The notes under the pieces are model-generated. The model saw nothing but the letters and a program-made list of their open reading frames with translations. It was not told the origin of the DNA and did not search any database. Positions 7,941 to 54,617 of a DNA stretch of 64,000 nt are shown one piece after another (within the stretch, counting starts at the first letter, position 1; the number at the start of each line of letters is the position of its first letter). The translations under genes were made by a program, and so were the position numbers. Origin of the DNA: a virus (taxonomy: Duplodnaviria > Heunggongvirae > Uroviricota > Caudoviricetes). The DNA lies in the IMG/VR virus record IMGVR_UViG_3300015615_000629, positions 288,001 through 352,000 of that record; one strand, written 5' to 3'.

Positions 7941-7950
7941 AAATTAAACG

Positions 7951-7975: not shown

Positions 7976-7979
7976 AGAG

Positions 7980-8059: not shown

Positions 8060-8071
8060 AGTTTGTTTCAC

Positions 8072-8662: not shown

Positions 8663-8663
8663 A

Positions 8664-9146: not shown

Positions 9147-9150
9147 TTAA

Positions 9151-10740: not shown

Positions 10741-10757
10741 TGTGGTATCGGCCCAAA

Positions 10758-11255: not shown

Positions 11256-11410
11256 GCCTTTTCTCGAATAAAATTAATTCTTTTTTGAGAAATTGCCGTT
11301 GCTTCTTTCTCGACTTTATTTCCCGAAGATCAGACTCATGCCACCATTCCAACCAGTGCTTTAAACAAAGTGCTGTTGGGGAAACATATTTGGCTTGTTT
11401 TGGGCATTTT

Positions 11411-11896: not shown

Positions 11897-11902
11897 TTGG
11901 CC

Positions 11903-11930
11903 ATTATAGCACAGTCTGGACAGATGTAAA
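11903..11930 (-). promoter_or_regulatory. sigma70-type early promoter
   Basis: TTTACA-N16-TATAAT with TGTGC. Confidence 0.65.
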
Positions 11931-11931
11931 A

Positions 11932-12018
11932 TGAGAGTACACGGAATTGAACCGCTCGGCTATCCACCCGACTTTTTAGAGCCTTGTGTTCTACAGACAC
12001 ACGTCGGGAAATACTCTC
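11932..12018 (-). tRNA. Atypical tRNA-Tyr(GTA) lacking a conventional D-arm
   Basis: GAGAGTA/TACTCTC+A73; TGTGT-CTGTAGA-ACACA; GCGG-TTCAATT-CCGT; D-region CCCGAC complementary to GTCGGG in an enlarged variable region. Confidence 0.7.
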
Positions 12019-12314
12019 TAATGAATGAACTCAGGAAACGCATCAGGCTTGCTTTTTCTTATAGTTTGAACCGCCAGAGACTTTGCCATTTGTTCTGGCG
12101 ACCTACTGTGCGGAAAACTACTTTTCTCATCAAGTTTTAATTCGCCTTTAAATGCAATAACTTCTTCGAGAAAAGATTCGATTTCTGGGGCCAAGTCTGA
12201 TTCGGCCCGCGATGGCTCGGAAATAAATTCTATAAAATCGCCCAATAATTCTTCCCATAATGGAATATATTCTGGATTCTCTTGCATCGCTAAGCGAACA
12301 TGTTTGAAAAACAT

Positions 12315-12503
12315 TTAGCCTCCCATTCCACTTTCTAGGCGGAAACACATTTCCTCGATTGGCTTCAAACCTTCTCTTTCAATCACCTCAATTGGTGTTC
12401 TATTGTAAAAGAATCTATTTGGAGTTTTAAGCCAAGTTTCTATGAATTCTTCTTTAATCACCGATGATAGAAGAATTTTGGCTTGGTTGAGATTGTTGTT
12501 CAT
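12315..12503 (-). CDS. Xre/MbcA/ParS antitoxin C-terminal (DUF2384-like) domain
   Basis: WLKTPN..F..RTPIEVI...G...IE....RLESG. Confidence 0.7.
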   Translation of the reverse strand: MNNNLNQAKILLSSVIKEEFIETWLKTPNRFFYNRTPIEVIEREGLKPIEEMCFRLESGMGG

Positions 12504-12505
12504 AG

Positions 12506-12593
12506 TGACCGAGACAGGACTTGAACCTGCACGCCTTATTTATTCGGCACGGCGTTCTCATCGCCGCATGGCTGCCAATTACATCACTCGGTC
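12506..12593 (-). tRNA. tRNA-Leu(GAG)
   Basis: CGGCG-ATGAGAA-CGCCG; long variable arm; TTCAAGT. Confidence 0.85.
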
Positions 12594-13351
12594 TTATTTG
12601 CGGCTATTTTAGCCCAATAACCTCTAGGAGGTTTATTGATTCCTAAATTCTTTGCCCACTTAGCAATCGCATTATCACTCACGCCAAAATCTTTGGCAAT
12701 TTGCGTTGTTGGTTTTTCCCAAAGTAATTTTTCAAGTTCATCTTTGGTTGGGTGTGGAACTTTGTGTGGTTTCGGTCTTTTACGCCAATTGTTATCAATA
12801 GGATTGCCGGATTTTATTCTTTTATCTTTTCTTTTTGTTCTCGCTACACGATTAAACTCGCCAGTGTTCCCTGTTAATCCAGTTTGTCCTTTATTAAGTC
12901 CAAACGTAGATGTTTGACTATGGCAGTTTGGACACATAAATCTAAGATTTTCTTTTTTATTGTCTAAAAAATTTCCGTTGATATGATCAACATGCAATCT
13001 TATCTCTTTTCCTTGCCACATACCATTGCAACCACATTTTTCACACTTATACTCTCTCCCACTTTCAATTAGTGCTCGTCTAAGTCGAACACCATGTTCT
13101 CTTCTATACTGGGTTTTTCCTTCTACAAGAATTTTACTCCAATGTTGTTTTTTTGGAGACGTTTTTCCTCGACAATGACATTGACCTGTAAAATGAGATG
13201 AATCAATTTTAAGGTTTTTTATTTTATTTCTTATATTTGTATGGCTTCCTCCTCCAAATTTAATGCCTAATCTCCGCATTACCTCGGAGATGGACATAGA
13301 CTGTTTTACTGCTTCTTCAAGTTGTTCTTTTGTATATTTTGTGTAACTCAT
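12584..13351 (-). CDS. HNH homing endonuclease with flanking HTH domains
   Basis: CEKCG...LHVDHING...DN..ENLRFMCPNCHSQT; located between Leu tRNAs. Confidence 0.85.
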   Translation of the reverse strand: MSYTKYTKEQLEEAVKQSMSISEVMRRLGIKFGGGSHTNIRNKIKNLKIDSSHFTGQCHCRGKTSPKKQHWSKILVEGKTQYRREHGVRLRRALIESGREYKCEKCGCNGMWQGKEIRLHVDHINGNFLDNKKENLRFMCPNCHSQTSTFGLNKGQTGLTGNTGEFNRVARTKRKDKRIKSGNPIDNNWRKRPKPHKVPHPTKDELEKLLWEKPTTQIAKDFGVSDNAIAKWAKNLGINKPPRGYWAKIAANKTE

Positions 13352-13416
13352 ACCCTAAGAGAGTATGGCTTTACCAAATATAACTAAAAGATATCAAATT
13401 TTACGAAAATTTTAAG

Positions 13417-13490
13417 TAGCTCCGGCGAGATTCGAACTCGCAGCATCGAACGTTCTAAGCGTTCGTGGTCGTCCAGTTGCCTACAGAGCC
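13417..13490 (-). tRNA. tRNA-Leu(TAG), short variable arm
   Basis: GAACG-CTTAGAA-CGTTC; 74 nt. Confidence 0.85.
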
Positions 13491-13507
13491 AAATTGATAT
13501 TTTTAAG

Positions 13508-13581
13508 TAGCCCAGAACGGATTTGAACCGTTAGCATCGGATTTTTTGAAAATCCGTGGTCTTCCAGTTGCCTACTGGGCC
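13508..13581 (-). tRNA. tRNA-Leu(CAA), short variable arm
   Basis: GGATT-TTCAAAA-AATCC; 74 nt; paralog of the TAG copy. Confidence 0.85.
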
Positions 13582-13589
13582 ATTGAATC

Positions 13590-13611
13590 AAATTAAATTA
13601 TCAAAGAACAA
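13590..13611 (-). promoter_or_regulatory. boxA-like antitermination element, copy 1
   Basis: TTGTTCTTTGATAATTTAATTT; 21/22 identical to 53851-53872; resembles rrn boxA TGCTCTTTAACA. Confidence 0.65.
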
Positions 13612-13612
13612 A

Positions 13613-13687
13613 TAAGACGGGTGGGACTCGGACCCACAAACGAAGATTTTTAAAATCTTCCGCATTATCCAGTTAGCGTACCGTCTC
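13613..13687 (-). tRNA. tRNA-Leu(TAA), short variable arm
   Basis: AAGAT-TTTAAAA-ATCTT; T-loop TCCGAGT. Confidence 0.75.
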
Positions 13688-13691
13688 AAAG

Positions 13692-13764
13692 TGGTAAGGA
13701 TCGGAATCGAACCGATTTAGCGCCGTCTTCAGCGGCGTGCAATGACCACACCTGCTCCCTTACC
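13692..13764 (-). tRNA. tRNA-Phe(GAA)
   Basis: CGCCG-CTGAAGA-CGGCG; TTCGATT. Confidence 0.85.
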
Positions 13765-14028
13765 ATAAACTCTAAATATCGCTTGCTTTTCTATTTCTTT
13801 TATAGTCCCTTTCATGTCCTAACACGTATTCACCTTTCATTTTGGAATGAACGGCAAATACAGTCCAGCCATCGTCCCAACTGCCATCTTCTTGTTTTAT
13901 CTTTACTACATTTCCTTCAATGGCAAACTTTGAAGGAATCCACGAAACATCGCGTTGATAGCCGTTTTCAGTCGGCTTTCGTAATTCACATTGGTTATAG
14001 TAATCTGATTTATTCATAAAATTCCTAG

Positions 14029-14114
14029 TAGCCACAGCCGGACTTGAACCGGCAAGGGGTTTGCACCCCATCGGATTTTAAGTCCGATGCGTTTTCCAAT
14101 TTCGCCATGCGGCC
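14029..14114 (-). tRNA. tRNA-Leu(TAA), long variable arm
   Basis: TCGGA-CTTAAAA-TCCGA; canonical class II fold. Confidence 0.9.
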
Positions 14115-14117: not shown

Positions 14118-14154
14118 AAAAAACCCTCAGTAACCACTTGGTTACTGAGGGTTT
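14118..14154 (-). terminator. Intrinsic terminator (attenuator 1) immediately 5' of tRNA array 1
   Basis: CCCTCAGTAACC-AAGT-GGTTACTGAGGG followed by TTTTTT; ends 3 nt before tRNA-Leu. Confidence 0.85.
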
Positions 14155-14180
14155 CGTATTCCCTAAGTCTAAGCGGTCAC

Positions 14181-14246
14181 TCAGCCATCGTCGCTATAGA
14201 GCGACAAGGATAAAAATGACAGGCTTAGACTAAACATCGCGTTCAT
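14181..14246 (-). CDS. Leader peptide 1 (21 aa, MNAMFSLSLSFLSLSLYSDDG)
   Basis: Read directly: ATG AAC GCG ATG TTT AGT CTA AGC CTG TCA TTT TTA TCC TTG TCG CTC TAT AGC GAC GAT GGC TGA; lies between promoter and terminator. Confidence 0.8.
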   Translation of the reverse strand: MNAMFSLSLSFLSLSLYSDDG

Positions 14247-14297
14247 TGTAGTGTATCTATTCTTCTCGTTTTGGTTTTTCTGCCACCGACTACAAAA

Positions 14298-14325
14298 ATC
14301 TTAGCACAGGATTTTCGTTTGTCAA
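14298..14325 (-). promoter_or_regulatory. sigma70-type promoter for leader 1 and tRNA array 1
   Basis: TTGACA-N16-TAAGAT with TGTGC extended -10. Confidence 0.7.
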
Positions 14326-16093: not shown

Positions 16094-17023
16094 TCAAAAG
16101 AAATCTCCTTGGTCGAAATACTTGAATCCCAATCTTTTGGCAAAAGTTTCATCGGTCGTTTGATCGCCGACGTAAATGCATTCTTTGGGATTCAATTTAT
16201 ATTTTTCGATCAAATAAACTCCCAAACCGCTTTGTGGTTTCCTACAATAGCAGGTTGGAGGGACATTATGTGGACAGAACACGTAATCAATATCGTGTCC
16301 TAGCAATTCATTTGTCTTATCAAAGCAGAGAACCGCGTTTTCTCTTGTTACTTGTTTTCTGGCAATTCCTGATTGGTTAGAAACGCCTAGCAGGAGATAG
16401 CCGTTATCTTTATATTCTTGTAGTTTTTCTTTTCTGTTTGGGAGAAGTTTGACTTCTTCTGGGTTGATAGGAAATTGGAATTCCCCTGTGGATTCTCTCA
16501 AAGTGCCATCATAATCGAGAATAAGTGCTTTGTTTGTATATTCGGATGGATTCCTTTTAAATTCTTTTTTGGTTATACTATTAAATCCTTCTTCTCTGGA
16601 AGGTTTTTTGAATTCTTTTCTATATTTGAAAAGGACAACGGCTGGGAATGTATTTGGATCTTTCTTGACTTCTTTAATTGATTCTAAGTCTAGGAATAGT
16701 TTTCCGTATTTTTGGTGCATCCTGTGAAGTGCGTTAATTTGGGCATCTTCGATGCTAGTTGCGACTAGGATGCAGTGAATTTCTGCTTTATTTTTATAGG
16801 CTAATTCTATAAAGGGTCGTCTACTTTCTACTGTTGGGAAGAGATTATCTAAGACTACATTTTTGCCTTGGCGTAGACAATTCTCCATTTTGGGCAACAA
16901 GTCGATAACTTCGCCGCCTTGTGTATCCCGATTCAGATGGATGTAGCCTTTTTCGATATATTCTTTTGCGATGGAGCTTTTACCGGAAGCGGGTGAACCG
17001 CAAATTAGAATTACTTCTGTCAT
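16094..17023 (-). CDS. Polynucleotide kinase/3'-phosphatase-like protein (P-loop kinase + HAD-IIIA)
   Basis: GSPASGKS P-loop; DYDGT, SNQSG, CRKP and VGD HAD motifs. Confidence 0.8.
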   Translation of the reverse strand: MTEVILICGSPASGKSSIAKEYIEKGYIHLNRDTQGGEVIDLLPKMENCLRQGKNVVLDNLFPTVESRRPFIELAYKNKAEIHCILVATSIEDAQINALHRMHQKYGKLFLDLESIKEVKKDPNTFPAVVLFKYRKEFKKPSREEGFNSITKKEFKRNPSEYTNKALILDYDGTLRESTGEFQFPINPEEVKLLPNRKEKLQEYKDNGYLLLGVSNQSGIARKQVTRENAVLCFDKTNELLGHDIDYVFCPHNVPPTCYCRKPQSGLGVYLIEKYKLNPKECIYVGDQTTDETFAKRLGFKYFDQGDFF

Positions 17024-30133: not shown

Positions 30134-32453
30134 ATGTATTATACTCAATACTTGGATTACAATAGATACATTTACAAGCAGTGTTTTCCGTACAATCCAC
30201 CCATTGACCTGTATTTATCAAATAGCCGCTCATAATTGCATTATTGTTGGACTCAAGACGACAATTACTATCTTGTAAATGCTTTTCACACAAGCACGAG
30301 GAAGGGATTGATATTCCTTCGCTGCTTGTTTTACAAAATAGTTTGATTGGCAAGTTTTTCTGCCCACTCTGCTGCTTCTTTTGGAGTAGTTGCCGTTTCG
30401 CAACCAATTTCTTTACCATCTTTAAACATTCTAACATAGAATTGGCCTTTTGGGTCGTTTTCTGGAAACCAATCTACGCAAATAGTCTTATTCCCGATAT
30501 TCACCACCACAATATCTTGGTTTAATTCATACGGTTGCATTTCTTCGTATAAATTGCTGGAAATTTCAGCACCCGCTGGCAAGGAAATGGGAATCGGTAA
30601 CAAAAAGTATTCCTTATCGACTTCTATTGCTTGCGTGCCATCCTCAAATGTCAGATCGGCACAACTGGGATTAATAGCATTTTGTTTGACATCTGCTTCG
30701 ACAATTTCGCCACATTTGTAAACCACTTCGGGTAAAACAACGTCTTTGGTTGGATAATCACCTAATTTTAGGCAATAAAATCCTTTATAATGACCGCCTA
30801 ATTTTCGAAATTTAATTTTTTCCATATCGTCTTTCTGCAAGTTCTACACCCATTCGGAAGGCTTGTTCTGGCGTAGGCGGCCCTACCTCATCAATTTTAC
30901 CAAAATAAGGGTGCTCGCAGTCGAACAATCGTTCTACGCGGCTTCTGGTTTCGTTGCTGTAATAACCTGCCCAATATCCCAAATTGGTTTTTTCTATTCC
31001 CTCAGCTTCTTCACGAGTAAGCCCGTGTTCCATCGAATGCCAGACGAGAACTTCAAAATATTGCTTAGCCTCGTCTTCTGAAACAATTTTCATTGCTGGA
31101 CTATATTTGTCGTCCAAAGTAATGTTATGCGGTAACACTTTATTTGTCATTGTGCCAACTCAATCCTTGCCCGTTAAGCGTATTGTATATGTCTTTGGCT
31201 AATATTTCAAATGCGGCTTTCTTGGCTTCTTTTGTTTCTAAGTCCCTGCCCATATTAGTGCAACAATGCGTATGAGACGAACCCTCGTTTTCGTCCTCAA
31301 CAATAACAGTAACGCAGAAATCGTCCCAATCGCGTTCGAATTTAATTGAACCACCATTATTACATATTTCTGCAATTTTAGCCACAATGGCAACGCAATG
31401 TTTTTCAGTCATTTTCATGGGCTCGTCTAAACATGTTCAAATCCAGTAGATGACCGGCTTCCTCTGCTGTAGCCCTGAACATTTTTCTAAAGGTGTTCTT
31501 TCCTAGTATCGTCTCTATTTGCTGAAAGTGCTTAAAGGCTGCTTCGTTGTATTGCTTAACGCATTCTTCCGAAGTAATTTCTTTTGTATCGAATCTATAC
31601 AATAGGCTTTGAAAAACCTTTAACATTTCATCTCTTATGGAGACAATTTCACGAATTTTTTCAAGGTCTACATCTTCTACATCTCCGATTTCAATATTGT
31701 TTTCGTTATACTCAACATCTTCTCGAATTCTCCAAGCAAACATATCGTCTACTTTCATGTCTTTGATTACGGATGGCGAAAAGAAAATAGGAACTTCCAA
31801 AACGGAGCTAAGACATTCAACTCCTTCTTCTTTATAAGCGGTTAATTTACATCCGATCCATTGACCGTTCATTCTGAAAGCCTTAATTTGTTCCAATGTT
31901 CTGTAAAATCGCCTTCAATCCATTCAGACCCTTCAATAAATTGATCTCTGGTTTTGAGCCAGTCGATTGTTTCTGCCTTACCGCGTTCCCAATCGAAGTA
32001 ATATCGTGGCCACAAATCTTGAAAGTCGATATCTAAAGCAAGAGTACCAGCGGCCTCAAGGTGGAAAAGATAGTTTCCACGGTCGCAATATTGCGGACGG
32101 GTAGATGTCCAAACAATGCAATTCTTACCAATGATAAAGTAAGAATCTTTTTTGATCCAGTTTATTCCCATTTGTCCATCAACTCGTTAGCATAAGTTTG
32201 CCCCTTAGTTTGTTTTATAATTTCCTTTGCTTCTCTCCATATCCTGCTTCTATTTCTTAGTTTGTTTTTCACGGGCAACGTTATTGTTAGAAACCCCAAA
32301 AGAACGTCAATTTGCAATCTATTTGGGTCTACGTTCTCTAAAATCGAGTCTACTTCGCTAAACTCGCCGGCCAACATGAGATCGTCGATATGATTGAAAA
32401 CAGCGTCTAGACCTTCGTCGGCATTTTCTATAGCGTAAAGGGATTCTAGCCAA

Positions 32454-33585: not shown

Positions 33586-33685
33586 TAGGAGCAGAGGGAA
33601 TCGAACCCCCACTTGGAGCTAATCAGGACTCCACCTTACGGCCGAGATTATAAGTCTCGTGTGCTAACCTTTACACCATGCTCCC
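33586..33685 (-). tRNA. tRNA-Ile(TAT) with ~30-nt expanded variable region
   Basis: CGAGA-CTTATAA-TCTCG; GGGAGCA/TGCTCCT; 100 nt. Confidence 0.75.
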
Positions 33686-44043: not shown

Positions 44044-44071
44044 ATTGTAGCACATCTAGACCGTGTGACAA
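44044..44071 (-). promoter_or_regulatory. sigma70-type early promoter
   Basis: TTGTCA-N16-TACAAT with TGTGC. Confidence 0.6.
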
Positions 44072-44141
44072 GCCCGCAGCCAGAATCGAACTGGCATCAG
44101 GAAGGTACGAACTTCCCATTCTACCATTAAACTATACGGGC
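44071..44141 (-). tRNA. tRNA-Thr(CGT)
   Basis: GGAAG-TTCGTAC-CTTCC; TTCGATT. Confidence 0.85.
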
Positions 44142-44851
44142 AATTCTACTTCTTATTGTTTTCTTTCCAAACGTAATAACGCCCCGCAATCGCAGCACCA
44201 GCTAACGCAAGCCCAATAACTATAAAAATCAATCCACCAAATTTTCGAAAAAATGGGTTGTTGATTAATTCCTCTAATAAGGTTAATTTCCCCATCTCAA
44301 TTCTCCTTCTTCGGAACCTGAATCACCAACACCCAACGATTTAAACGCTCTTCCGAAGTTTTGCCATTAGGATCGCCCTGTAACATCTCCACACAGCAAC
44401 TTAAACCCCTGGCAATGTCCAATTGTGCCTGCGCCCGCCGAACCGCTGCCTTACATTTTCTTTCCAAATCCGGAGATAAAGGCTTGCCATCAAGTCCATT
44501 CACATCACCAGTTATCTCAATGTCACCAACAGATGGTAACTGCTTTAATAATTCATTTCTCTGAGATAACCACTCAGCCGCCCGATCTTCACATTCGCTG
44601 GTTCGCTCACTCTGTTCTTTTATAAGTCTTTCGTAGACAACGACCTCTTTTTCCATCACCCCAACAGCAGCAACACTTTCTTCCGCTGTCTCTTTATACT
44701 CAACAGCATCCACATATTGCTTGATATTAAAAAGAATCGAAGCCGCCAAAACAATCCCAAGGAATGCTTTCATTTTTTAATCGCCCATCCAACTAAGAAT
44801 AAACTAATGGCGTATACCAAAACAACAAATATAAGTAAAGCGTAAACCAAC

Positions 44852-46021
44852 TTAAACCATTTCATACTGCAATTGACGATCAACCATTCGCAGAACCTTC
44901 TTTGTAACGTCTACTGGCTGCTCTGTCAATCGTAATCCCGCCACCAATTCATCCGATATGCCACTATATTCACTACTTCTGGCTTCCTTAACAAATCTCA
45001 TGTCCCTTATCGGATAAATATTGTTCAACCTAGTCGAGGTCAATATGCCATTTGTAAACATGTTCATATGTTCATTAGTTACAACATTATAAAATGTGGT
45101 TTTTTCATGCACAATTTTCTTGTTTACTATCTTTACTTTGCCATTTCTTGTATATGTTGTAGTTCCAATAGGTGAACTCATCATATTAGTAAACATACCC
45201 TTTTCAATATTGAAAATACTATGACCCTTGCCATCGTCAATAGTTCCCAACGACGAACCGTCACTAAATTTAACCAAAGCATAAGAAAGTCTAGTAAATG
45301 GCTTCATAATCCAAATTGGTTTGGCTTTATCAAGTCTGGCAGTGTCAAAGTTCCAAACAAGTAAGGTATCTGAATAATCTACATTTTCAATATTCTTATA
45401 GCCATTTGGTAACGAAACCCTAGTGCCAGCCATTAAGCACAACCACGGATTTGGATCGGATTGAATTGCATTTCCATAAACCGTTCCATCTGCATTTATG
45501 GCATAGGCGGCAACCCATACAGGATTTGCCCCATCGGTTAAAGTAATGCCGTCTAAAGTAAAGGGAAGAGTAAGGGAGTCTTCATAGGAACCAGTAAACG
45601 GCGTAAACGCCATTGTCGATACATGATCACTTGTTGTCGGACTGTCCGTATTGGCAGCATAAACAAAACCATATTCTATTACGCTATCACCGCCATTGCC
45701 AATGGTTGCGGTCATATGTATATTAAGATTTTCGACTTCTAAAGAGTCTGTAGTGATTTCAAGTGTTGCAGCCGTTGCAGGAGCCGTATATAACTCCCAT
45801 TCTGGAGCCTGCCCCGCTTCCACCAGACGCTTTAAATTGACAGCTTCCTGGTCGTAAAGAGTGACAATATCTCCATGCTTTCGAACGATAGATGGAGAAC
45901 CACCCAATAAACCTATTGAGGTAAAGGTAGATTTAGCCTGAGCAGCAATCTCGGCTTCCGCTGGAGATAAAAGATGACCTTCTGTGTCCTTGAGATTAAT
46001 CCTAAATGTTAGTGAATACAT
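44852..46021 (-). CDS. FN3/Ig-like protein with C-terminal Hint domain
   Basis: GG..V.EYGFVY...AYAIN..GT.YG (FN3-like); CLMAGTRV...K.IE.V...D; YNVVT..H.N.F.NGILT. Confidence 0.7.
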   Translation of the reverse strand: MYSLTFRINLKDTEGHLLSPAEAEIAAQAKSTFTSIGLLGGSPSIVRKHGDIVTLYDQEAVNLKRLVEAGQAPEWELYTAPATAATLEITTDSLEVENLNIHMTATIGNGGDSVIEYGFVYAANTDSPTTSDHVSTMAFTPFTGSYEDSLTLPFTLDGITLTDGANPVWVAAYAINADGTVYGNAIQSDPNPWLCLMAGTRVSLPNGYKNIENVDYSDTLLVWNFDTARLDKAKPIWIMKPFTRLSYALVKFSDGSSLGTIDDGKGHSIFNIEKGMFTNMMSSPIGTTTYTRNGKVKIVNKKIVHEKTTFYNVVTNEHMNMFTNGILTSTRLNNIYPIRDMRFVKEARSSEYSGISDELVAGLRLTEQPVDVTKKVLRMVDRQLQYEMV

Positions 46022-46557
46022 TTAGATATATAGGTCAATCTTGACAATTTCCTAATTTACCAACAATTTTACCGCAATATGGGCATGGCCAACTTTCTAC
46101 CATTTTAACCATATCATCGTATGAAACACTAGTGCCCGACTTCCACTCCCTAGTATCGGTTTTCCCAATAACCCTTAAATGCCAAATTATAGTCTCATGC
46201 TTGGTAACATTTGACGAAATAACCGCATCGTAGCCAAGATTTTTACATGTTTCTAACAGATTATATACAATATTCTTGTTTTCATCTGACAAAAGGATAT
46301 CGCACGGAAACTGCTTTTGCTTGGCAAGGTATTCGGGAAGTTTTTCTAAGAACGTCATAAAACGAGTATGACAAATTTGGGTGAAAAGATCAAATCCAAT
46401 TGGAGTCGATTACGTCATCTATGGATTTTGGTTTTCTATCTCTTTTTTCTTGAACATGTTCGCAAAATATGAACACAAAACCCATTAGACTAAAAAATAC
46501 GCCAAGAAATACGATAGCTCCAACAACACAATCTAAAATTGACATTTGTTTGCCTTT

Positions 46558-47169
46558 TTATTCTATCACTTCCGCATCCCCTACACCAGGAATTTCCAAA
46601 ATATCCGAATATTTTAAAATATCAGAAACCCTTAGTTTTCTAGCGTCAGAACGATATCTGGAATATTTAGAATATTTAATAAGGACAATAGGGGTCTTGC
46701 TAACAACTATATCAATGTAAAATGTTTGATTTTGTCCTATAGTAGATACCCTGAAAAGAGAACCAAATTCAGGTGAACTCAATAACCAAGGTGTCTTCAT
46801 TATAGTAATCTCATTCGGTATCGCCTTTCTTACAACTAACTTAGTTCCTTTCTTGACCATTCTTCTATTGTTTTTTGCTTCCATCCAAATAGAAAAGTAA
46901 TACATCTTATCAGGGCTCAAAAAATATCCATGAACCATGTCTTCTTCAATAACGATATCATCAGGACATGTAATTACCATTCCAGATTTAATTGCATCTA
47001 TCGCAAAAGCATCCTCGTTATCGAATACAACATGCTTTTCAGTTGGTTCTTTCGCTGGTTCGACTTTGCTAATTAAGATGTTTTCTGTGAAAACAGGGGA
47101 TTTTTCTGCGGTTTTGAACAAAACCAAGAATATACAGAAAATTCCAAGAAGGATTGCGGCGGCTTTCAT
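46558..47169 (-). CDS. Exported/membrane-anchored protein, paralog of 27232
   Basis: Shared HGY and VKK.TKL motifs. Confidence 0.65.
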   Translation of the reverse strand: MKAAAILLGIFCIFLVLFKTAEKSPVFTENILISKVEPAKEPTEKHVVFDNEDAFAIDAIKSGMVITCPDDIVIEEDMVHGYFLSPDKMYYFSIWMEAKNNRRMVKKGTKLVVRKAIPNEITIMKTPWLLSSPEFGSLFRVSTIGQNQTFYIDIVVSKTPIVLIKYSKYSRYRSDARKLRVSDILKYSDILEIPGVGDAEVIE

Positions 47170-47490
47170 ATCTTTATTTACGGTCGAAAAGCATTATTAT
47201 AATTAGGATTTTCTAAAGGATACCAGCGAATTTGACTGTCATTGTCCTTTTTAAGTTCGTCTAGACTTTTTTGCAATTCTAATATCTTTTTGTTTAGCTC
47301 TGCAATTTCCTTGTTAAGAGCCTCTTCTTTGCTTTTGTCGGGTTTGGGCTGGGTTTGTTGGATGCATGGCGGTTCAATCTTGTTGGGTTCTTCGGACTTA
47401 TCTCGAAAAAAGAAAAGTGCTACAAAGAACACGACAGTTGCAAAAATAACCAAATACTCTTTCTTCATAGGAGTATTTAGGGTTATTAAG

Positions 47491-47574
47491 TTCGAGAGGC
47501 ACGAATCGAACGTGCGTAGGGTTTCCCCAGACTTGGTTCAAAGCCAAGCTGCCATACCAACATAGCACTCCGGA
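47491..47574 (-). tRNA. tRNA-Gln(TTG) with long variable arm
   Basis: CTTGG-CTTTGAA-CCAAG; GGG-GAAA-CCC variable hairpin; TTCGATT. Confidence 0.7.
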
Positions 47575-47578
47575 TCAA

Positions 47579-47652
47579 GGTGGCTGACGGGAATCGGACC
47601 CGCGTAAAACCTCATTCACAGTGAGGCACCTGAACCAACACAGGACAGCCAC
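47579..47652 (-). tRNA. tRNA-His(GTG)
   Basis: CCTCA-CTGTGAA-TGAGG; T-loop TCCGATT. Confidence 0.75.
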
Positions 47653-47654
47653 AG

Positions 47655-47725
47655 CGATGACGACGGGAATCGGACCCGCGTTACAACTTAGACAGAGTTG
47701 CGTGTTACCATTACACTACGTCACC
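47655..47725 (-). tRNA. tRNA-Asp(GTC)
   Basis: CAACT-CTGTCTA-AGTTG; G73. Confidence 0.85.
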
Positions 47726-47913
47726 GTATTTCTTATTCCTTGTCACTGAAAACGTATTGACCGTTCTCTTCTGTTAACATAAACTTCTTTTTATCAAATC
47801 TTTCTTCCGGCAAATCTCCCATTACTCCCGAATGACCATGCACTACATATTCGTCTTCTGTTTCGGATAATGTTCTTAGATTTGAAAATACATGTGCCAT
47901 ATCTGATCCTCGT

Positions 47914-48678
47914 TTATTGATATACTTGTTTTAGATTTACGCTATAGCAATCTTCTGAATCCGAGTATTTCCAAGTTACATTTCCTTCCAAATCTTTTTT
48001 GACTATGGCGTATCTATCTCCTATTAATCCAGACAGCATTTCATTCGAAATTTGGGAAAGCAATAATCTTTGAAAGTGATCCTTTATGGCCCTTTCTGCA
48101 TTTATAACATCGCGATACATGAATTGATCATCAATTACGTCAAATAAATCACAAATTTTAGAAAGTGTTTGCTTAACAATATCCATATTAAAAGTACCAA
48201 AAGAAAGAAGTTTATTATCTATTTGGTCCTTAAATTCCCTTATACTCATACTTCCGTTTACTTTACAAAACATCTCTTGTATTTCATCTATAATTTTTTT
48301 GCACTTCTCAACTTCTATATCGCTTAAATTAGATATTTCTACTAACTTCTTAAAGGTATCGCAATTAGTACCTGCAATTCTTACTACAAGGCGAACAAGT
48401 TCCCGCAGGCTCATTTGATACCATTCTATTGTAACAACAGTTCGAGGAACATCTGGACATTTTGTATGCATGTCCTTAAATGCTTCAATGTTTTTACATT
48501 TGTAAATGGCATCACAAAAGGTATTTCTTATTCTTCCCAAAAGAAAGTCCCTAATGTCTTGTTTTGTATAATGCCGATGCGACCCAACCATAGTGAAATT
48601 TAGAGTACCATTATCTGTCAAATTCCGCACGGTTCCAGGTGTTACGCCAAGTATTTTTGCAACTTCTTTAGTCTTCAT
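47914..48678 (-). CDS. MerR/excisionase-type HTH protein
   Basis: MKTKEVAKILGVT..TVR...G.HR.Y. Confidence 0.7.
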   Translation of the reverse strand: MKTKEVAKILGVTPGTVRNLTDNGTLNFTMVGSHRHYTKQDIRDFLLGRIRNTFCDAIYKCKNIEAFKDMHTKCPDVPRTVVTIEWYQMSLRELVRLVVRIAGTNCDTFKKLVEISNLSDIEVEKCKKIIDEIQEMFCKVNGSMSIREFKDQIDNKLLSFGTFNMDIVKQTLSKICDLFDVIDDQFMYRDVINAERAIKDHFQRLLLSQISNEMLSGLIGDRYAIVKKDLEGNVTWKYSDSEDCYSVNLKQVYQ

Positions 48679-48786
48679 ATCTTTATATAGTTAAATTTTA
48701 TATGAAACAGCACAAAAAGAAGAATTTGTTTTGGTGCTTCCGTTCTTTTCTATCTGCAAGGCTTCTATATATTAGCAGCCCCACGA

Positions 48787-48837
48787 CCCGTGACAAGGAC
48801 CGGTAGCCCAAACGGCAGCCTTGTCACGGGTTTTTTT
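48787..48837 (+). terminator. Plus-strand hairpin with T7 tail; possibly the end of a small RNA
   Basis: CCCGTGACAAGG...CCTTGTCACGGG-TTTTTTT, just downstream of a TATATA motif. Confidence 0.6.
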
Positions 48838-48839
48838 AG

Positions 48840-48911
48840 CTCCGGTGCCTGGGTACGATCCAGGAACAGTTGAGTAACAATCAACCGTGATACCAGTTTC
48901 ACCACACCGGA
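48840..48911 (-). tRNA. tRNA-Asn(GTT), copy 2
   Basis: GTTGA-TTGTTAC-TCAAC; atypical T-loop ATCGTAC; G73. Confidence 0.8.
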
Positions 48912-48976
48912 ATAGTTTTATTTAAACTTTTTCAACAGGAGTCGAAATTATTCGAGTCCAGTTACTATATAAGAGT

Positions 48977-49594
48977 ATGCCTTATGTAGCAACGTGTACT
49001 TGTTGTGGCATAGAATTTACTAGGCCAACAAGATGTCATCCTAAACATCATCCAAAATGGAAAGGAAAACATTTTTGTAGTGTTAAGTGTCGCCACTTGT
49101 CCCAAGTTACCTCTATCACTCAGCCATGCGGCTGGTGTAATAAATCGGTAACAAGAAACCTAGCAGAAGCAAAAGGTTCTGCTTCTGGCCTTTTATTTTG
49201 CAATAATTCTTGTTCAGCATCTTACAGCAATACCAAACGTAGAAAATCCAGACGTTCCAAATGTGAGGTAATGCTGTTTGATTTATTGAGCAAAGAATTT
49301 CCAAATGTTACAATGTTGCCAAATGATAAAACCATGTTAGACGGGCTAGAAGTGGACATTGCAATTCCGGATATCCAACTCGCTATTGAATGGAACGGAA
49401 TAGTTCATTTCAAACCAATTTATGGTCAGTCGAAACTTGATCGTATCCAAAATATAGACAAACAAAAACTTGAAATTGCTGAAAACAAGGATATAAATCT
49501 AATTGTAATTCCCGACCTAGTTTCCAAGGACGAATACGTAAAGGAAGCATTCCACAAAATAAGTTCAATCATACGTGAGTTGTTAAAAAACTAA
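48977..49594 (+). CDS. Putative homing endonuclease (Zn repeats + Vsr/DUF559-like), paralog of 7054
   Basis: LEVDIAIPDIQLAIEWNGIVHFKPIYG; flanked by two tRNA-Asn genes. Confidence 0.7.
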   Translation: MPYVATCTCCGIEFTRPTRCHPKHHPKWKGKHFCSVKCRHLSQVTSITQPCGWCNKSVTRNLAEAKGSASGLLFCNNSCSASYSNTKRRKSRRSKCEVMLFDLLSKEFPNVTMLPNDKTMLDGLEVDIAIPDIQLAIEWNGIVHFKPIYGQSKLDRIQNIDKQKLEIAENKDINLIVIPDLVSKDEYVKEAFHKISSIIRELLKN

Positions 49595-49595
49595 G

Positions 49596-49669
49596 AGGGC
49601 AAGGCCGGAATCGAACCGATGCGACATTTTTGTTAACAGCAAAATGCTCTACCACTGAGCTACTCGCCC
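49596..49669 (-). tRNA. tRNA-Asn(GTT), copy 1
   Basis: TTTTG-CTGTTAA-CAAAA; TTCGATT. Confidence 0.8.
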
Positions 49670-50196
49670 TTAAATTTTATCCATTCCTCGACAACATCCT
49701 TGTAAAGTTTCTTTCTCCCCTCTCTTTTATTTTTTACAAATTTAAGCAAGTCTTTGAAAAGAGATAAACTTTTCTCCCAATTTCCCTTTTTATACTCGAT
49801 TGCTTCTAAAATGAAGAAATTAATTGGTTTCGCATCGTAGTATTTCAGCCAGTCTGAGTCGTTCCCTGTAGACTTTTCTAAAAGCCATCTTACAGATTCT
49901 GCAAAATCTTCTCCTATATCACCTTCACAATTACCGCTGGCTCGACTAACCTCGTGTACGCCATGCCCCAGTTCATGAAAGATTGCATTAAATTCACAAT
50001 CATTATAAACAACTACATCCCCATACTTTTCATTTATACCTATCCATAACGCACTGCCTTCGGCAGTGTCCAATGTAAAATTTCTTATTTCTTTAAAAGG
50101 GATATCATTTACTGTGAAAAAATTATAGGCATACCTTATTTTATTTTCAAAATGTGCCACCACTCTTACTTCGCTCATGGCAAGCGTTGCTCGCAT
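49660..50196 (-). CDS. Possible zincin metallopeptidase
   Basis: HELGH...EDFAES. Confidence 0.55.
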   Translation of the reverse strand: MRATLAMSEVRVVAHFENKIRYAYNFFTVNDIPFKEIRNFTLDTAEGSALWIGINEKYGDVVVYNDCEFNAIFHELGHGVHEVSRASGNCEGDIGEDFAESVRWLLEKSTGNDSDWLKYYDAKPINFFILEAIEYKKGNWEKSLSLFKDLLKFVKNKREGRKKLYKDVVEEWIKFKGE

Positions 50197-50403
50197 CCCT
50201 TGTTTCCTCCAAAATATTCGTCTAAATATTCAATTTCTTTGGCCAGTGCTAGTGCCTTTGCTTCGGCCACTAATTTCTCCATTTCGGCAATTTCTTCGGG
50301 AGTATATCGCCTTTCTCGATCTTCTTTCAAATATTGATTAAAAGCATCGATATCCGCTTGCGTCGAAGTTGGACCTAAATGCATAATTTCATCCTTATTC
50401 AAG

Positions 50404-50474
50404 TGACCCCGGTGGTGCTTGCAACCACATCGTCCTGGTTAAGAGCCAAGAGCTTTTCGTTAAGCTACGGAGTC
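50404..50474 (-). tRNA. tRNA-Lys(CTT)
   Basis: CTTGG-CTCTTAA-CCAGG; atypical T-loop TGCAAGC. Confidence 0.75.
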
Positions 50475-50478
50475 AAAG

Positions 50479-50552
50479 GGCCGACGACTGGGTTCGCACC
50501 AGCATAAACTTGTTTACAAAACAAGCGCCTTACTAAATCGAGCCACGTCGGC
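50479..50552 (-). tRNA. tRNA-Thr(TGT)
   Basis: CTTGT-TTTGTAA-ACAAG; T-loop TGCGAAC. Confidence 0.8.
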
Positions 50553-50659
50553 AATTTTCTTATATTTTGCCCCGCCTTCACCCAGCGAGGCAGAACGGCC
50601 AATTTTGTATACAGGATCGTTAGTCCAGAGGCCGTAGGTTGTCGCCCTTTCGATGGCGT

Positions 50660-50920
50660 TTATTCGTTGTCTTTCCTACGTTGGAAATCTTCTATTATTT
50701 CAGATAACAAAGGCAAACGTCTAAAAGACGACAAACGCTTAAATTCTGTAATTTCATGTGGGCCAATAAACTCTTTCTCAGCCTCTAGCCAAAATTGCAA
50801 ATCTAAGTTCTGTGGGCACCCAGCATCAAGCCATTTGAAATAAGCAGACTTAGAAATTAATTCTTTTTTATAATACGAAATATTTTCATCTGCAATGCTC
50901 ATCGGGTGGAGGTTACTCAT
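50660..50920 (-). CDS. DUF2934-like small protein
   Basis: I...AY.KW..AG.P...D..FWLEAE.E. Confidence 0.65.
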   Translation of the reverse strand: MSNLHPMSIADENISYYKKELISKSAYFKWLDAGCPQNLDLQFWLEAEKEFIGPHEITEFKRLSSFRRLPLLSEIIEDFQRRKDNE

Positions 50921-51230
50921 ATCTTGTTTTAATGTCGCCTAGATAGGTTGTGCCGTGTTCTTTGTAAACTTTGTATATAGAGTAATATTCTTCACCCCGA
51001 TACATTAATTCATCAATCAAATACTGTTTATCTTCTGGTAGGACGACATGTGGTATGTGAGCATAGCCTACAGTGCCATGTTGTCCGCAATTACACTTCC
51101 AATGCCATCCTAATGGATTACTATAATTAACCATTCCGGATAGTTTAAGTTCTTTATTGCCGCAAGATTTACAGGTTTGTTCGTCTAAGAAATCTTGCAT
51201 TGCTTGACGTTCAGGGTCTTCATTCATAAG

Positions 51231-51304
51231 CACGGATGTAGGAAATCGAATCCTAAAAGCGAGAGTTTTGGAGGCTCTCCGTCGTACCCACCGACTGCAT
51301 CCGT
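51231..51304 (-). tRNA. tRNA-Trp(CCA)
   Basis: Loop CTCCAAA; ACGGATG/CATCCGT; G73. Confidence 0.75.
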
Positions 51305-51308
51305 AAAG

Positions 51309-51377
51309 TATCCCGTAAAAGAGTCGAACTTTTCATCCGAGTTTCGTAAACTCAGTGCCAATTCCGTTGGACGGGAC
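51309..51377 (-). tRNA. tRNA-Arg(ACG), compact atypical D-arm
   Basis: TGAGT-TTACGAA-ACTCG; 69 nt. Confidence 0.7.
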
Positions 51378-51393
51378 AAATTTTATAAGCCTT

Positions 51394-52029
51394 TTAGACT
51401 GGAAGCGTCCTTACTATGTCTTCTGCAAAATAGTCATCTCTTAATACTGTCAGAACTTCGCCTAGCCAGTTTGTGCCTTTCCAAGGCTTGCCATTTTTGG
51501 CGTCTTTGGCATCGATTCCGATTCCCCATATTGTATCATATGGAGATGCTTCAACTAACATTGTTCCGGCAGTTTTCCGCAACACTTCCAACATATCTGG
51601 ATTTTGAGTAAATTTGTAATAATTGCCTGTGAAAACTATGCTTCGTGCATTTGCATCCCATCTTCCCTTATCGAAGCCTTTTACCGTTCTGCCAAGTGCT
51701 TTTTGTTCACGTGGCGATTTGGCTTCCATTATCTTTTTGAATGTATCTTTATCTCCGAAGAACAGGGCTTTTTGAGCCATCATATACTGTTCGGCGGTGT
51801 TATAGGTAATTTTGTTTACTGTAAATTTGGAATGACTCCATTGGGAGAAAGGGGCTTCGTTCCAAAAGTAAGTAAATTCAGTGTACTTTTTCATTGTTTT
51901 TGGTTTCCGTGTAATTTCGTAGGAACCATCTGGTAAAATTTTATATTCAAGGTCATAAAATGATGGTTTTGCCGAAATATATTCGGATTCAATGTTTAGT
52001 TCGATTTCTTTATCCATAAGTGCGACCAC
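51394..52029 (-). CDS. NADAR (YbiA/DarG1-like) family hydrolase
   Basis: FSQW; TAEQYMMAQKA..FGD; KF.QN; LVEASPYD.IWGIG; G.N.LG. Confidence 0.9.
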   Translation of the reverse strand: MVALMDKEIELNIESEYISAKPSFYDLEYKILPDGSYEITRKPKTMKKYTEFTYFWNEAPFSQWSHSKFTVNKITYNTAEQYMMAQKALFFGDKDTFKKIMEAKSPREQKALGRTVKGFDKGRWDANARSIVFTGNYYKFTQNPDMLEVLRKTAGTMLVEASPYDTIWGIGIDAKDAKNGKPWKGTNWLGEVLTVLRDDYFAEDIVRTLPV

Positions 52030-52094
52030 TGAGAATTGAACTCAGTCTATTTGCTTGGGAAGCAAGTGTGCGAAGCCGTTAACACTTTGGTCGC
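52021..52094 (-). tRNA. tRNA-Gly(CCC)
   Basis: TTGC-TTCCCAA-GCAA; GCGACCA/TGGTCGC. Confidence 0.8.
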
Positions 52095-52098
52095 GGAG

Positions 52099-52169
52099 AG
52101 CGGGTAGGGAGAATCGAACTCCCATAACCAGTTTGGAAAACTGGAGCTTTACCATTAAGCAATACCCGC
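52099..52169 (-). tRNA. tRNA-Gly(TCC)
   Basis: CCAGT-TTTCCAA-ACTGG; U73. Confidence 0.9.
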
Positions 52170-52702
52170 TTAGTCTAGATATTTTTAAAGTAATGCGAAA
52201 ATTTCGGTAATAATTGATTCAAGGATTGAATATCGTTTTGTTTAAATGCTCCTTCAGCGTCTTTTACAAGATTTCTCCAATATAAAGCATTGTATAACTC
52301 GGTAGGAACATAAAGAAATCCTTGTGTGTCTTCTTTAACTGGTGTATTGGGACCGCCATCTTTTATATTTCCTGCTGGTTTTACACCAACCGCAAATCGC
52401 AACATAATAGATTTGTTTCTTTTTTCATAATCCACATATTTTAACCAACCGTCTTTTAATGGCCCATTAAGTTCTTGAATTAGTCTTTTTTTGACTGTTT
52501 CTACCATATTTTTATATGTAGTCATTTCTTCGGGGGAGATATTTTCGAATCTACCATTTGCTCGCATGGGATGTTTCCCATCTGCTCCAAGAGTATTCCA
52601 ACGACTGTGCAATCCTCGTAAGATATTTCTCTGCGTAGAGTAATCGAATTGTTCCTGTTCTAACAGGTAATCAATGAATGTTTTCATACGTTATATACCC
52701 GC

Positions 52703-52921
52703 TTAATCATAGAATCCAAGTTCTTGTGCCTCGGATACTAATTGATTTAATATTTCAAATGATCTTTTACGATTTTCTTTTTTAAAGTTCATTAACTCGT
52801 CTGAGTCAACTTGCACTTTCAACAAACCTTTTCCCACAATTTCCTTTAAGAAATATTCGTGGGAAACATTCATTAATTCTGCGGCTTGGTCAGTTGTAAG
52901 TTGTTGTGTCATTGGAATCAC
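52703..52921 (-). CDS. Excisionase-like HTH, resembling antitoxins of PIN-associated TA pairs
   Basis: LTT.QAAEL.NVS..Y; C-terminal L..L..EAQELG.Y; wing apparently deleted. Confidence 0.6.
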   Translation of the reverse strand: MIPMTQQLTTDQAAELMNVSHEYFLKEIVGKGLLKVQVDSDELMNFKKENRKRSFEILNQLVSEAQELGFYD

Positions 52922-52936
52922 GTTTCGTTGTGTAAG

Positions 52937-53010
52937 TATCCCCGGCTGGATTCAAACCAGCAACCTGCGGATTAGAAGTCCGCTGCTCTATTCAGTTGAG
53001 CTACGAGGAC
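52937..53010 (-). tRNA. tRNA-Arg(TCT)
   Basis: GCGGA-CTTCTAA-TCCGC. Confidence 0.9.
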
Positions 53011-53014
53011 ATAG

Positions 53015-53087
53015 TAGCCGGTATCCGAGTCGAGCGGATTCTTCATCGTTCGAAGCGATGCGTGCTAGTCCCTCACACTCACCGGCC
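53015..53087 (-). tRNA. tRNA-Arg(TCG)
   Basis: CATCG-CTTCGAA-CGATG; T-loop CTCGACT. Confidence 0.75.
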
Positions 53088-53092
53088 AAAGT

Positions 53093-53584
53093 TTAACTAA
53101 CCATTGCTTCTTTCCAATATTGGAGATTATTTTCGCTTATTTCTCCGTTGCAGTATTTTGCCAAGTCCAGAAGAGCATTATAGAACAAACTGGCTTCTTC
53201 TGCAAACCCTAATATGGTAAGGCATTTCAATACACGTGTGATTCGTAAGTAATTATGGTCGCCTGAGAATACCCAACTGCTATTTTTTCGTAGTTTGACT
53301 AATTTGCCATTGTAGGCAACTGCAAATCCCCAAAATTTGAGCATTCGGTAGAATGCTTCTAGCATCTTTTCTCTTAATGCTGGATCGCTTTTAAATAATT
53401 GTATTTGTTCGGCGTCGAGTAAGGGTGCATCTGGGTTGAAGTTACTTGGTTCTGTAAGTGGAAACAGCCATTGGATATAACTATGGTCTGCTTCAAGTCG
53501 GTGGTCTTTGGAGGCTATAATTTCATCAATTTTATAGCCTTCATCGTTACCGATTTTACTACGGTAAAATTCTACTGCTTGCAT
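53093..53584 (-). CDS. OGFr_N (opioid growth factor receptor N-terminal-like) protein
   Basis: LE..H.YIQWLFP..E.S..NP.AP.L; HN.LRITR.LK.L. Confidence 0.85.
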   Translation of the reverse strand: MQAVEFYRSKIGNDEGYKIDEIIASKDHRLEADHSYIQWLFPLTEPSNFNPDAPLLDAEQIQLFKSDPALREKMLEAFYRMLKFWGFAVAYNGKLVKLRKNSSWVFSGDHNYLRITRVLKCLTILGFAEEASLFYNALLDLAKYCNGEISENNLQYWKEAMVS

Positions 53585-53602
53585 TTTTAATCCTTATTTA
53601 AA

Positions 53603-53673
53603 TCGACCGCATAGGAGTCGAACCTATGTTTACTACTCATCAGATAGTCGTCCTACCGTTGAACGAGCGGTCG
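53603..53673 (-). tRNA. tRNA-Ile(GAT)
   Basis: ACTAT-CTGATGA-GTAGT (unusual G37); TTCGACT. Confidence 0.75.
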
Positions 53674-53689
53674 GGTTATTATAACGGAG

Positions 53690-53760
53690 TAGGCCGCCTG
53701 AGAATCGAACTCAGATCTAAAAATTAAAAGTTTTTTATTCTCCCATTGAACTAGCGACCC
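53690..53760 (-). tRNA. tRNA-Lys(TTT)
   Basis: AAAAA-CTTTTAA-TTTTT (all A-U anticodon stem). Confidence 0.8.
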
Positions 53761-53764
53761 AAAA

Positions 53765-53843
53765 AGGCATCGTGCCGGATCGAACGGCTTGGAATCATCT
53801 TTGCAGGATGACGGGCCGCCACGACCCATTAACCTACGATGCC
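53765..53843 (-). tRNA. tRNA-Cys(GCA) with enlarged D-region
   Basis: TCATC-CTGCAAA-GATGA; U73. Confidence 0.75.
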
Positions 53844-53850
53844 ATTGGCT

Positions 53851-53872
53851 AAATTAAATTGTCAAAGAACAA
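53851..53872 (-). promoter_or_regulatory. boxA-like antitermination element, copy 2
   Basis: TTGTTCTTTGACAATTTAATTT, right after the first tRNA of array 2. Confidence 0.65.
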
Positions 53873-53873
53873 G

Positions 53874-53945
53874 GGCCTTCGGTGAGAATCGAACTCACTA
53901 CCGCTTCCTTACCAAGGAAGAACTCTACCGATGAGCTACGAAGGC
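53874..53945 (-). tRNA. tRNA-Thr(GGT)
   Basis: CTTCC-TTGGTAA-GGAAG. Confidence 0.9.
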
Positions 53946-53963: not shown

Positions 53964-53996
53964 AAAAAACCCGCTTCAGGTTTGAACCTGAGCGGG
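53964..53996 (-). terminator. Intrinsic terminator (attenuator 2) 5' of tRNA array 2
   Basis: CCCGCTCAGGT-TCAA-ACCTGAAGCGGG-TTTTTT; ends 18 nt before tRNA-Thr. Confidence 0.85.
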
Positions 53997-54052
53997 CTTT
54001 AAGTGATTCAGCCGACCCAGGTTTTATCCTGAGCCGTGTCTTGTTGACTGGT

Positions 54053-54142
54053 TCAGGACGAGATGATGGTGCATCCTTGGCGCGTATTAATATCGCACCA
54101 ATTATGCTGTTTATCTCGTCTTGTACCAATCATGAGTGACAT
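54053..54142 (-). CDS. Leader peptide 2 (29 aa, MSLMIGTRRDKQHNWCDINTRQGCTIISS)
   Basis: ATG TCA CTC ATG ATT GGT ACA AGA CGA GAT AAA CAG CAT AAT TGG TGC GAT ATT AAT ACG CGC CAA GGA TGC ACC ATC ATC TCG TCC TGA. Confidence 0.8.
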   Translation of the reverse strand: MSLMIGTRRDKQHNWCDINTRQGCTIISS

Positions 54143-54175
54143 TTTAGTTTCTTCTACTTTCGTTCTAACTGTAAG

Positions 54176-54247
54176 TGGCGGGAGAAGGAATCGCACCTCC
54201 GACCTTGAGTTTATGAGACTCACGAGCTACTACTGCTCCACCCCGCT
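54176..54247 (-). tRNA. tRNA-Met(CAT), initiator-like
   Basis: TGAGT-CTCATAA-ACTCA; A1:C72 mismatch; fMet-like D-arm; lacks the three G-C anticodon-stem pairs. Confidence 0.75.
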
Positions 54248-54256: not shown

Positions 54257-54331
54257 TGGTGGCAGGGGAGGGCCTTGCACCCCCAACCTTCGGGTTTAAC
54301 CCCGACGCTCTATTTTTTGAGCTACCCCACC
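54257..54331 (-). ncRNA. tRNA-like RNA with 6-nt anticodon loop and encoded CCA
   Basis: GGTGGGG/CCCTGCC-ACCA; TCGGG-GTTAAA-CCCGA. Confidence 0.65.
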
Positions 54332-54338
54332 AATTAAG

Positions 54339-54420
54339 CGGCCAGGGATGGTAACGAGCCACCGACCTCCGCTACTTGCCATTGCTGACTTTCGCGGTGC
54401 TCTCACTGAGCTACCTAGCC
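54339..54420 (-). ncRNA. tRNA-like RNA with expanded, hairpin-containing anticodon arm
   Basis: GGCTAGG/CCTGGCC; GCTC/GAGC D-stem; CCGC-[GAAA GTCA GCAA TGGC AAGTA]-GCGG; T-arm GGTGG/CCATC. Confidence 0.6.
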
Positions 54421-54589
54421 ATGTTCTTCTATATAGAAGATTCAAATCATTTTTTCTTCACGCACTTAGTAAAACCTCCTTTTGGTCAGAGTTACTAATT
54501 GCGGCCGGAATTGAGCTATTCCTTTCGGACTTACTCAAGGATTACCGGCCCTTGTGCTGTTTCGCTCTTTTCTTGCCGTCAACTCCCCT

Positions 54590-54617
54590 ACTATAGCGTG
54601 ATTTTTTGGGTTGTCAA
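54590..54617 (-). promoter_or_regulatory. sigma70-type promoter for tRNA-like RNAs, leader 2 and array 2
   Basis: TTGACA-N16-TATAGT. Confidence 0.7.

Follow-up and report, generated by a model that had tools for sequence, protein, structure and literature searches.

The locus lies on the minus strand of a 64,000-nt window of phage DNA, which comprises bases 288,001-352,000 of a 572,167-bp record that carries direct terminal repeats and is rated complete. It begins with a sigma70-type promoter (54590-54617) that was recognized by consensus match only (11 of 12 bases); similar promoters are also found upstream of the two other leaders of this genome. The interval from promoter to leader (54257-54590) contains a tRNA-like RNA with a 6-nt anticodon loop (54257-54331), a second tRNA-shaped element and more hairpins. 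The first of these scores 43.6 bits with the Rfam tRNA model and was assigned no anticodon by ARAGORN, and no Rfam family was found for the RNAs between promoter and leader. They are followed by an initiator-like tRNA-Met(CAT) (54175-54247), a leader ORF of 29 codons (54053-54142) and, after 83 nt of alternative helices, the six T of an intrinsic terminator (53964-53998), which is the only strong hairpin-plus-U site on the minus strand between positions 44000 and 53990. The initiator-like tRNA stands upstream of the terminator and is hence not gated by it, an arrangement that makes sense because a leader cannot sense the loss of its own start tRNA. The four orthologues, too, each have a Met(CAT) or initiator-like tRNA ahead of the leader; in that of the phage G011 (L488:3860-3958, plus strand) about 22 nt are inserted into the anticodon loop.

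Downstream of the terminator, 18 tRNA genes and interspersed protein genes (OGFr_N, NADAR and HTH) occupy positions 44071-53945. The tRNAs are specific for Thr (three), Cys, Lys (two), Ile, Arg (three), Gly (two), Trp, Asn (two), Asp, His and Gln, in agreement with the initial annotation of 17 downstream tRNAs (47490-53945) and a distal Thr(CGT) at 44071; Arg-TCG and Arg-ACG were detected only at a lowered ARAGORN threshold. As the NADAR (51394-52029) and OGFr_N (53093-53584) genes lie on the same strand inside the array, they are possibly co-induced with the tRNAs. Promoter-like sites within the 10-kb array, for example at 50150 (11/12), could let distal tRNAs bypass the switch. A 15-nt element after the first of these tRNAs (53857-53871, minus strand) is presumably akin to the boxA of rRNA operons and has exactly three copies genome-wide, one near the start of each tRNA array. 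Several further genes of this genome bear on tRNA function. An Ile tRNA gene with the anticodon TAT and an enlarged variable region (33586-33685, minus strand) stands alone outside the arrays; the codon ATA is absent from the leader. tRNAs whose anticodons are TCA and CTA were located, together with a tmRNA-like match, at L015:2241-2311, L016:847-981 and G000 30802-30894, all on the minus strand, and all three stop codons terminate ORFs normally in the genome despite these tRNAs. A polynucleotide kinase/phosphatase-like gene (16094-17023, minus strand) could serve tRNA repair.

The phage (G000) is T4-like and encodes a gp23-type capsid protein. The one close record that bears a name is the unannotated huge phage LR756511.1 (capsid identity 70%), and capsid identities to G000 were 69-77% in the four relatives measured. 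The tyrosyl-tRNA synthetase of the phage (34976-36205, minus strand) is 58-64% identical to Planctomycetota enzymes, and 79 of its best 80 genome hits bear Planctomycetota names, mostly Pirellulales. Because of this similarity a planctomycete is the likely host, although this is inferred from a single gene. Capsid genes of the phage clade were also met on contigs binned in bacterial MAGs of unrelated phyla (L480 (CALFYV010000090.1), L482, L483 and L484), among which a 546-kb contig resembles a near-complete phage.

Leader codons and the tRNA content of the arrays

The initial annotation had noticed that codons 5-27 of the leader encode only amino acids of the downstream tRNAs, and a check of the composition bore this out: Ile, Gly, Thr, Arg, Asp, Lys, Gln, His, Asn, Trp and Cys, and no others, occur there, and all 11 are present. 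Each amino acid is sampled one to four times and each codon once or twice, with no run longer than two. A codon listing confirmed three different Arg and three different Thr codons, and also the imperfections that had been pointed out, namely that GGT and CAG have no exact tRNA in the array and that AAG and GGG are not sampled. The GGT codon can be decoded by Gly(GCC), which is encoded in the third array of the genome. Over the whole leader ORF, 23 of 28 codons fall within the set of the array, a value reached by 189 of 200,000 dinucleotide shuffles. Genome-wide, the 23-codon run ranks third longest among 610 such runs in six frames, and among the eight longest it alone contains all 11 amino acids. 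As the window of codons 5-27 was picked post hoc, stronger evidence comes from out-of-sample leaders, that is, the third leader, which lies outside the window, and eight leaders in relatives. No clear Shine-Dalgarno motif was found before this ORF, where the sequence is A-rich; AAGG or GGAG precedes the start in nine of the 11 leaders altogether.

Two more units of the same kind are present in the genome. The sister unit (14118-14325, minus strand) consists of a promoter (14298-14325), a leader of 21 codons (14181-14246) and a terminator (14118-14151), and precedes an array (7676-14114, minus strand) with five Leu tRNAs, one Phe, three to four Ser and an atypical Tyr(GTA)-like gene. Its leader is rich in Phe, Ser, Leu and Tyr and carries five different Leu codons. 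The Tyr codon is explained by the Tyr(GTA)-like gene (11932-12018, minus strand), which has no normal D arm and was missed by both ARAGORN and Rfam. The third array (Pro, Met, Glu, Ala, Val and Gly-GCC) lies at 113.8-116.6 kb of the genome, and its leader was found where predicted, at 116.7 kb (L013:4691-4762, minus strand). In this leader 19 of 22 codons match the array, which none of 200,000 shuffles achieved, and its terminator is homologous to that of the first leader. Each tRNA block thus has its own matching leader, and the three leaders jointly cover all 20 amino acids. The partition of the tRNAs is itself non-random. The Ser, Leu and Tyr tRNAs with their long variable arm, sometimes joined by Phe, form a separate block in G000, G002, G011 and LR756511. 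The third block is composed mainly of G-starting codon families together with Pro, and the block of the leader at 54053-54142 mainly of A- and C-starting ones. A shared nuclease, a modification enzyme or host GC bias are candidate causes, and the partition remains unexplained.

Five related phages add eight more leader units, so that a short ORF between promoter and regulated genes is observed in 11 units of six phages. Orthologues of the first leader are found in LR756511.1 (L104:3831-3938, minus strand), G010 (L360:1250-1369, plus strand), G011 (L488:4080-4205, plus strand) and G014 (L492:4291-4386, plus strand); of the other two leaders, the sister leader was met in three relatives and the third in a single one. 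The four orthologues, 31-41 codons long, retain the helix ladder, an uninterrupted frame and a start region rich in purines despite their changed sequence. Conservation of the amino-acid set rather than of its order had been proposed as a check of the idea, and the relatives met it: length (29-41 codons) and order vary, and the set follows the array. Ala, Val, Glu and Pro occur in the leader where the corresponding tRNAs are in the array (LR756511, G010 and G014) and are absent where these have been split off (G000 and G011). In G011, where the Asp tRNAs reside in the third array, Asp is missing from the first leader and appears near the end of the third. Only G000 has Gly in its third leader, and it is there that the third array includes Gly(GCC). 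Phe is used by the leaders of LR756511 and G010, whose arrays include a Phe tRNA, yet a single Phe is also present in the leader of G011, where the array has no such tRNA. Among the variable amino acids, leader and array concur in 34 of 40 cases (32 of 35 without Met). Counted by amino acid and unit, 89 cells were positive in both leader and array, 31 in the leader only, five in the array only and 95 in neither. This observed covariation represents few independent events, about three or four and not forty, because Ala, Val, Glu and Pro move as one, and the tRNA lists, taken from partial regions of the relatives, may be incomplete.

Some members of the clade may lack the unit, as no leader or terminator was detected within 800 nt upstream of a Ser/Phe/Leu array of G001 (L098:11900-12700); loss of the leader or control from further off are both possible there. 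Scans of viral and genome contigs for the terminator motif returned no further units, and of 97 loci inspected after a scan for the protector hairpin, one was a true orthologue. Scanning for the initiator tRNA led to unrelated phage arrays without an evident leader after that tRNA, the only position inspected, and distant blastn searches against phage records matched only tRNAs. By inspection, no evident leader-terminator unit accompanies four Thr-Tyr-Gly-Thr housekeeping tRNA operons from four genomes of Planctomycetota.

Alternative helices between leader and terminator

The leader region folds far more stably than shuffled sequences (z-score -10) and can form five helices that share segments. 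Segment Z (54113-54132, codons 4-10) is the 5' arm of a long hairpin within the ORF and pairs with segment A (54045-54064), which surrounds the stop codon (Z:A, -44 kcal/mol). Segment A can instead pair with segment B (54026-54035; A:B, -14.2 kcal/mol), B with segment C (54010-54023) in a protector hairpin (B:C, -14.8 kcal/mol), and C with segment D (53985-53998) in an antiterminator of 13 pairs and one mismatch (C:D, -18.9 kcal/mol). Segment D is also the 5' arm of the terminator, which it forms with segment E and the U-tract (53964-53982; D:E, -17.6 kcal/mol). In the naked RNA, segment Z would hold segment A. All four pairings listed in the initial annotation were recovered by folding at the places given there, and the his-type relay inferred from them proved anatomically right, as it recurs with changed sequence in the four orthologues and in the paralogous third leader. 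An antiterminator that is mutually exclusive with the terminator and linked to the end of the ORF is part of the ladder in all seven units of this type. The energies are similar in LR756511, G010 and the third leader, and the ladder was likewise obtained by folding in both G011 units and in G014. Segment A, always at or just past the stop codon, covaries with segment B between units. No Rfam family fits the leader region; the best candidate, the trpB motif, reached 22 bits against a cut-off of 59 and was rejected. No T-box match to the leader was obtained even at E values up to 10, and the T-box criterion of a specifier stem with a T-box antiterminator is unmet.

The switch between these helices is supported by modelling only. 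When the full-length RNA was folded at equilibrium with a ribosome mask, the terminator of the leader at 54053-54142 had a probability of 0.65-0.85 at every ribosome position. The third leader did switch under equilibrium folding, with terminator probabilities of 0.00-0.02 for stalls at codons 5-22 and of 0.62-0.85 for a ribosome at the stop or an untranslated RNA. For the first leader, the antiterminator was preferred before segment E is made even with the ribosome at the stop (0.81), and the barrier from protector to antiterminator amounted to only 7.1 kcal/mol at this stage. The two end states differ by less than 1 kcal/mol and are separated by a barrier of 13 kcal/mol, so the folding path should decide the outcome. 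In a simple co-transcriptional kinetic model the terminator formed with a probability of 0.84-0.97 when the ribosome was at the stop and of 0.00 when it was stalled eight codons earlier. With the faster rate constant and even codons scanned, read-through was predicted for codons 6-26 and termination at codons 4, 28 and 30; this read-through window coincides with the stretch of matching codons and excludes codons 4 and 28, which have no match. With the slower rate constant, codons 12-16 terminated too. The model is home-made, crude and noisy, gave no termination at the stop for G010 and was inconsistent for untranslated RNA. The proposed polarity, termination with a ribosome at the stop and read-through upon an upstream stall, is hence favored by the crude co-transcriptional model and not by equilibrium folding of this leader, and the kinetic results are consistent with a switch without being proof of one.

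Proposed mechanism and competing explanations

We consider it highly probable, though not certain, that the unit controls a phage tRNA operon by ribosome-mediated transcription attenuation. Polymerase would start at the sigma70-type promoter and make the initiator-like tRNA and the leader unconditionally, and a ribosome would translate the leader behind it. If decoding is prompt, the ribosome is expected to reach the stop and cover segment A, whereupon B:C and D:E would form and transcription would end ahead of the array. Absence, cleavage or lack of charging of even one of the 11 tRNA species would make the ribosome stall at about codons 5-27; A:B would form, C would capture D and transcription would read through into the array, with long read-through probably aided by the boxA-like element. 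Newly made tRNAs would relieve the stall and close a negative feedback loop. Translation of the leader, its coupling to transcription, regulated termination and the physiological signal are inferred here.

Because no codon is used more than twice and the synonymous codons differ, the sensor is expected to register near-complete loss of any single tRNA. The leader should accordingly behave as an OR gate over the usable tRNA pool that answers severe loss of a single tRNA more than mild starvation, a behavior well matched to defence nucleases of the host that destroy tRNAs, or to the decay of host tRNAs during infection. The same attenuator might have evolved to respond to amino-acid starvation or to a general slowing of elongation instead. 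It is established for attenuators that a stalled ribosome cannot distinguish an uncharged from a missing tRNA. In addition, a tRNA array of Anabaena is induced by general impairment of translation (PMC8421152). Nevertheless, extra tRNA is no cure for a shortage of amino acids, the leader is without the long single-amino-acid runs of classical starvation-sensitive leaders and samples different synonymous codons, and a general speed sensor has no need for leaders that track array content. Within the attenuator interpretation such a signal is considered unlikely, though it deserves to be kept in mind, and tRNA destruction or decay is clearly favored over amino-acid starvation.

Much less support remains for a constitutive terminator, or for one bypassed with the help of an antitermination factor (boxA/Nus type) from phage or host, with a leader that merely tunes basal read-through or is a relic. 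The presence of a boxA-like site in every array and the failure of equilibrium folding to switch the leader at 54053-54142 would fit this idea, but the boxA-like site cannot act on the terminator because it is located downstream of it, and frame, amino-acid match and ladder have been maintained across phages with capsid identities to G000 of 69-77% (four measured); we regard this explanation as very improbable. A structured non-coding RNA, made up of the long hairpin and the terminator with an incidental ORF, could account for the very stable fold (z -10), the weak ribosome-binding site and the tRNA-like RNAs nearby. The covariation of leader and array already speaks against it, and it is scarcely credible given that no Rfam family fits, that the amino-acid match is conserved in 11 units and the hairpin sequence is not, and that AAGG or GGAG stands before nine of 11 leader starts. 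Equally hard to uphold is a nascent peptide that acts in trans or, like TnaC or ErmCL, arrests the ribosome in response to a ligand, as the short motifs common to two orthologues (LR756511 and G010) stand against five orthologues across which only the amino-acid set, and not order or length, is conserved.

Starting from the attenuator interpretation, we lean, though only slightly, towards a broader proposal: the giant-phage family would check the entire genetic code through leaders that serve in parallel as codon checklists, one for each tRNA block, only the block that replaces tRNAs destroyed by host immunity would be switched on, this codon-resolved counter-defence response would cancel itself, and a leader would be re-spelled when tRNA genes change block. 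Why phages carry large tRNA sets is a long-standing question, with codon adaptation, replacement of decaying host tRNAs and escape from tRNA-cleaving defences as the proposed answers. An array that is conditional on slow decoding of its own codons would make these tRNAs on-demand spares and not constitutive helpers of codon bias. A reporter of about 200 nt makes the purpose of phage tRNA sets directly testable, and the leader could itself act as a genetically encoded reporter of tRNA-nuclease activity.

Relation to known systems

The mechanism is known from amino-acid operons, and its use on tRNA genes was not found in our literature search, which returned no published account of leader-peptide control of tRNA genes (most subscription papers were outside its scope) and nothing relevant on coupling in Planctomycetes. 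Attenuation is not mentioned in a huge-phage survey and a 2026 review of jumbo phages. The phage unit meets the structural criteria of ribosome-mediated attenuation and would work like a multivalent attenuator of the his type. The criteria of classical amino-acid attenuators are unmet, as tandem codon runs are absent and the regulated genes encode tRNAs instead of biosynthetic enzymes or synthetases. The his attenuator of Salmonella and E. coli comprises a leader ORF and a ladder of alternative helices, three of which favor termination and two read-through, and a stalled ribosome frees the segment that starts the relay. The phage leader has the same ladder layout as hisL; unlike hisL, with its seven tandem His codons and biosynthetic enzymes, it combines 11 amino acids with tRNA genes. 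The thrL and ilvGMEDA leaders regulate proteins and respond to two or three amino acids by means of codon runs; in pheST, the pheM leader places a tRNA-charging function under the control of leader translation. The phage leader would resemble the former in sensing more than one amino acid and the latter in tying leader translation to tRNA function. To our knowledge, none of the three controls tRNA genes or distributes the complete genetic code over parallel leaders. A T-box makes direct contact with a single uncharged tRNA and needs no translation. As in a T-box, the status of tRNA would decide in the phage unit between terminator and antiterminator, but the phage leader has no T-box match.

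The nearest functional parallel is the inducible L-array of Anabaena, which is under the control of a protein repressor. In Anabaena sp. PCC 7120 this array is a silent spare set of tRNAs that is induced when translation is impaired; no leader or attenuation is mentioned for it, and it is not codon-specific as described (PMC8421152). Phage tRNAs that replace host tRNAs cleaved by PARIS AriB, Retron-Eco7 and Schlafens are the subject of reports (PMC12409363, PMC12673091, PMC13056530) in whose abstracts neither sensing nor control on demand is mentioned for the phage tRNA genes. With the unit described here, attenuation would reach beyond amino-acid operons to tRNA genes, and the signals would number eleven or more instead of one to three.
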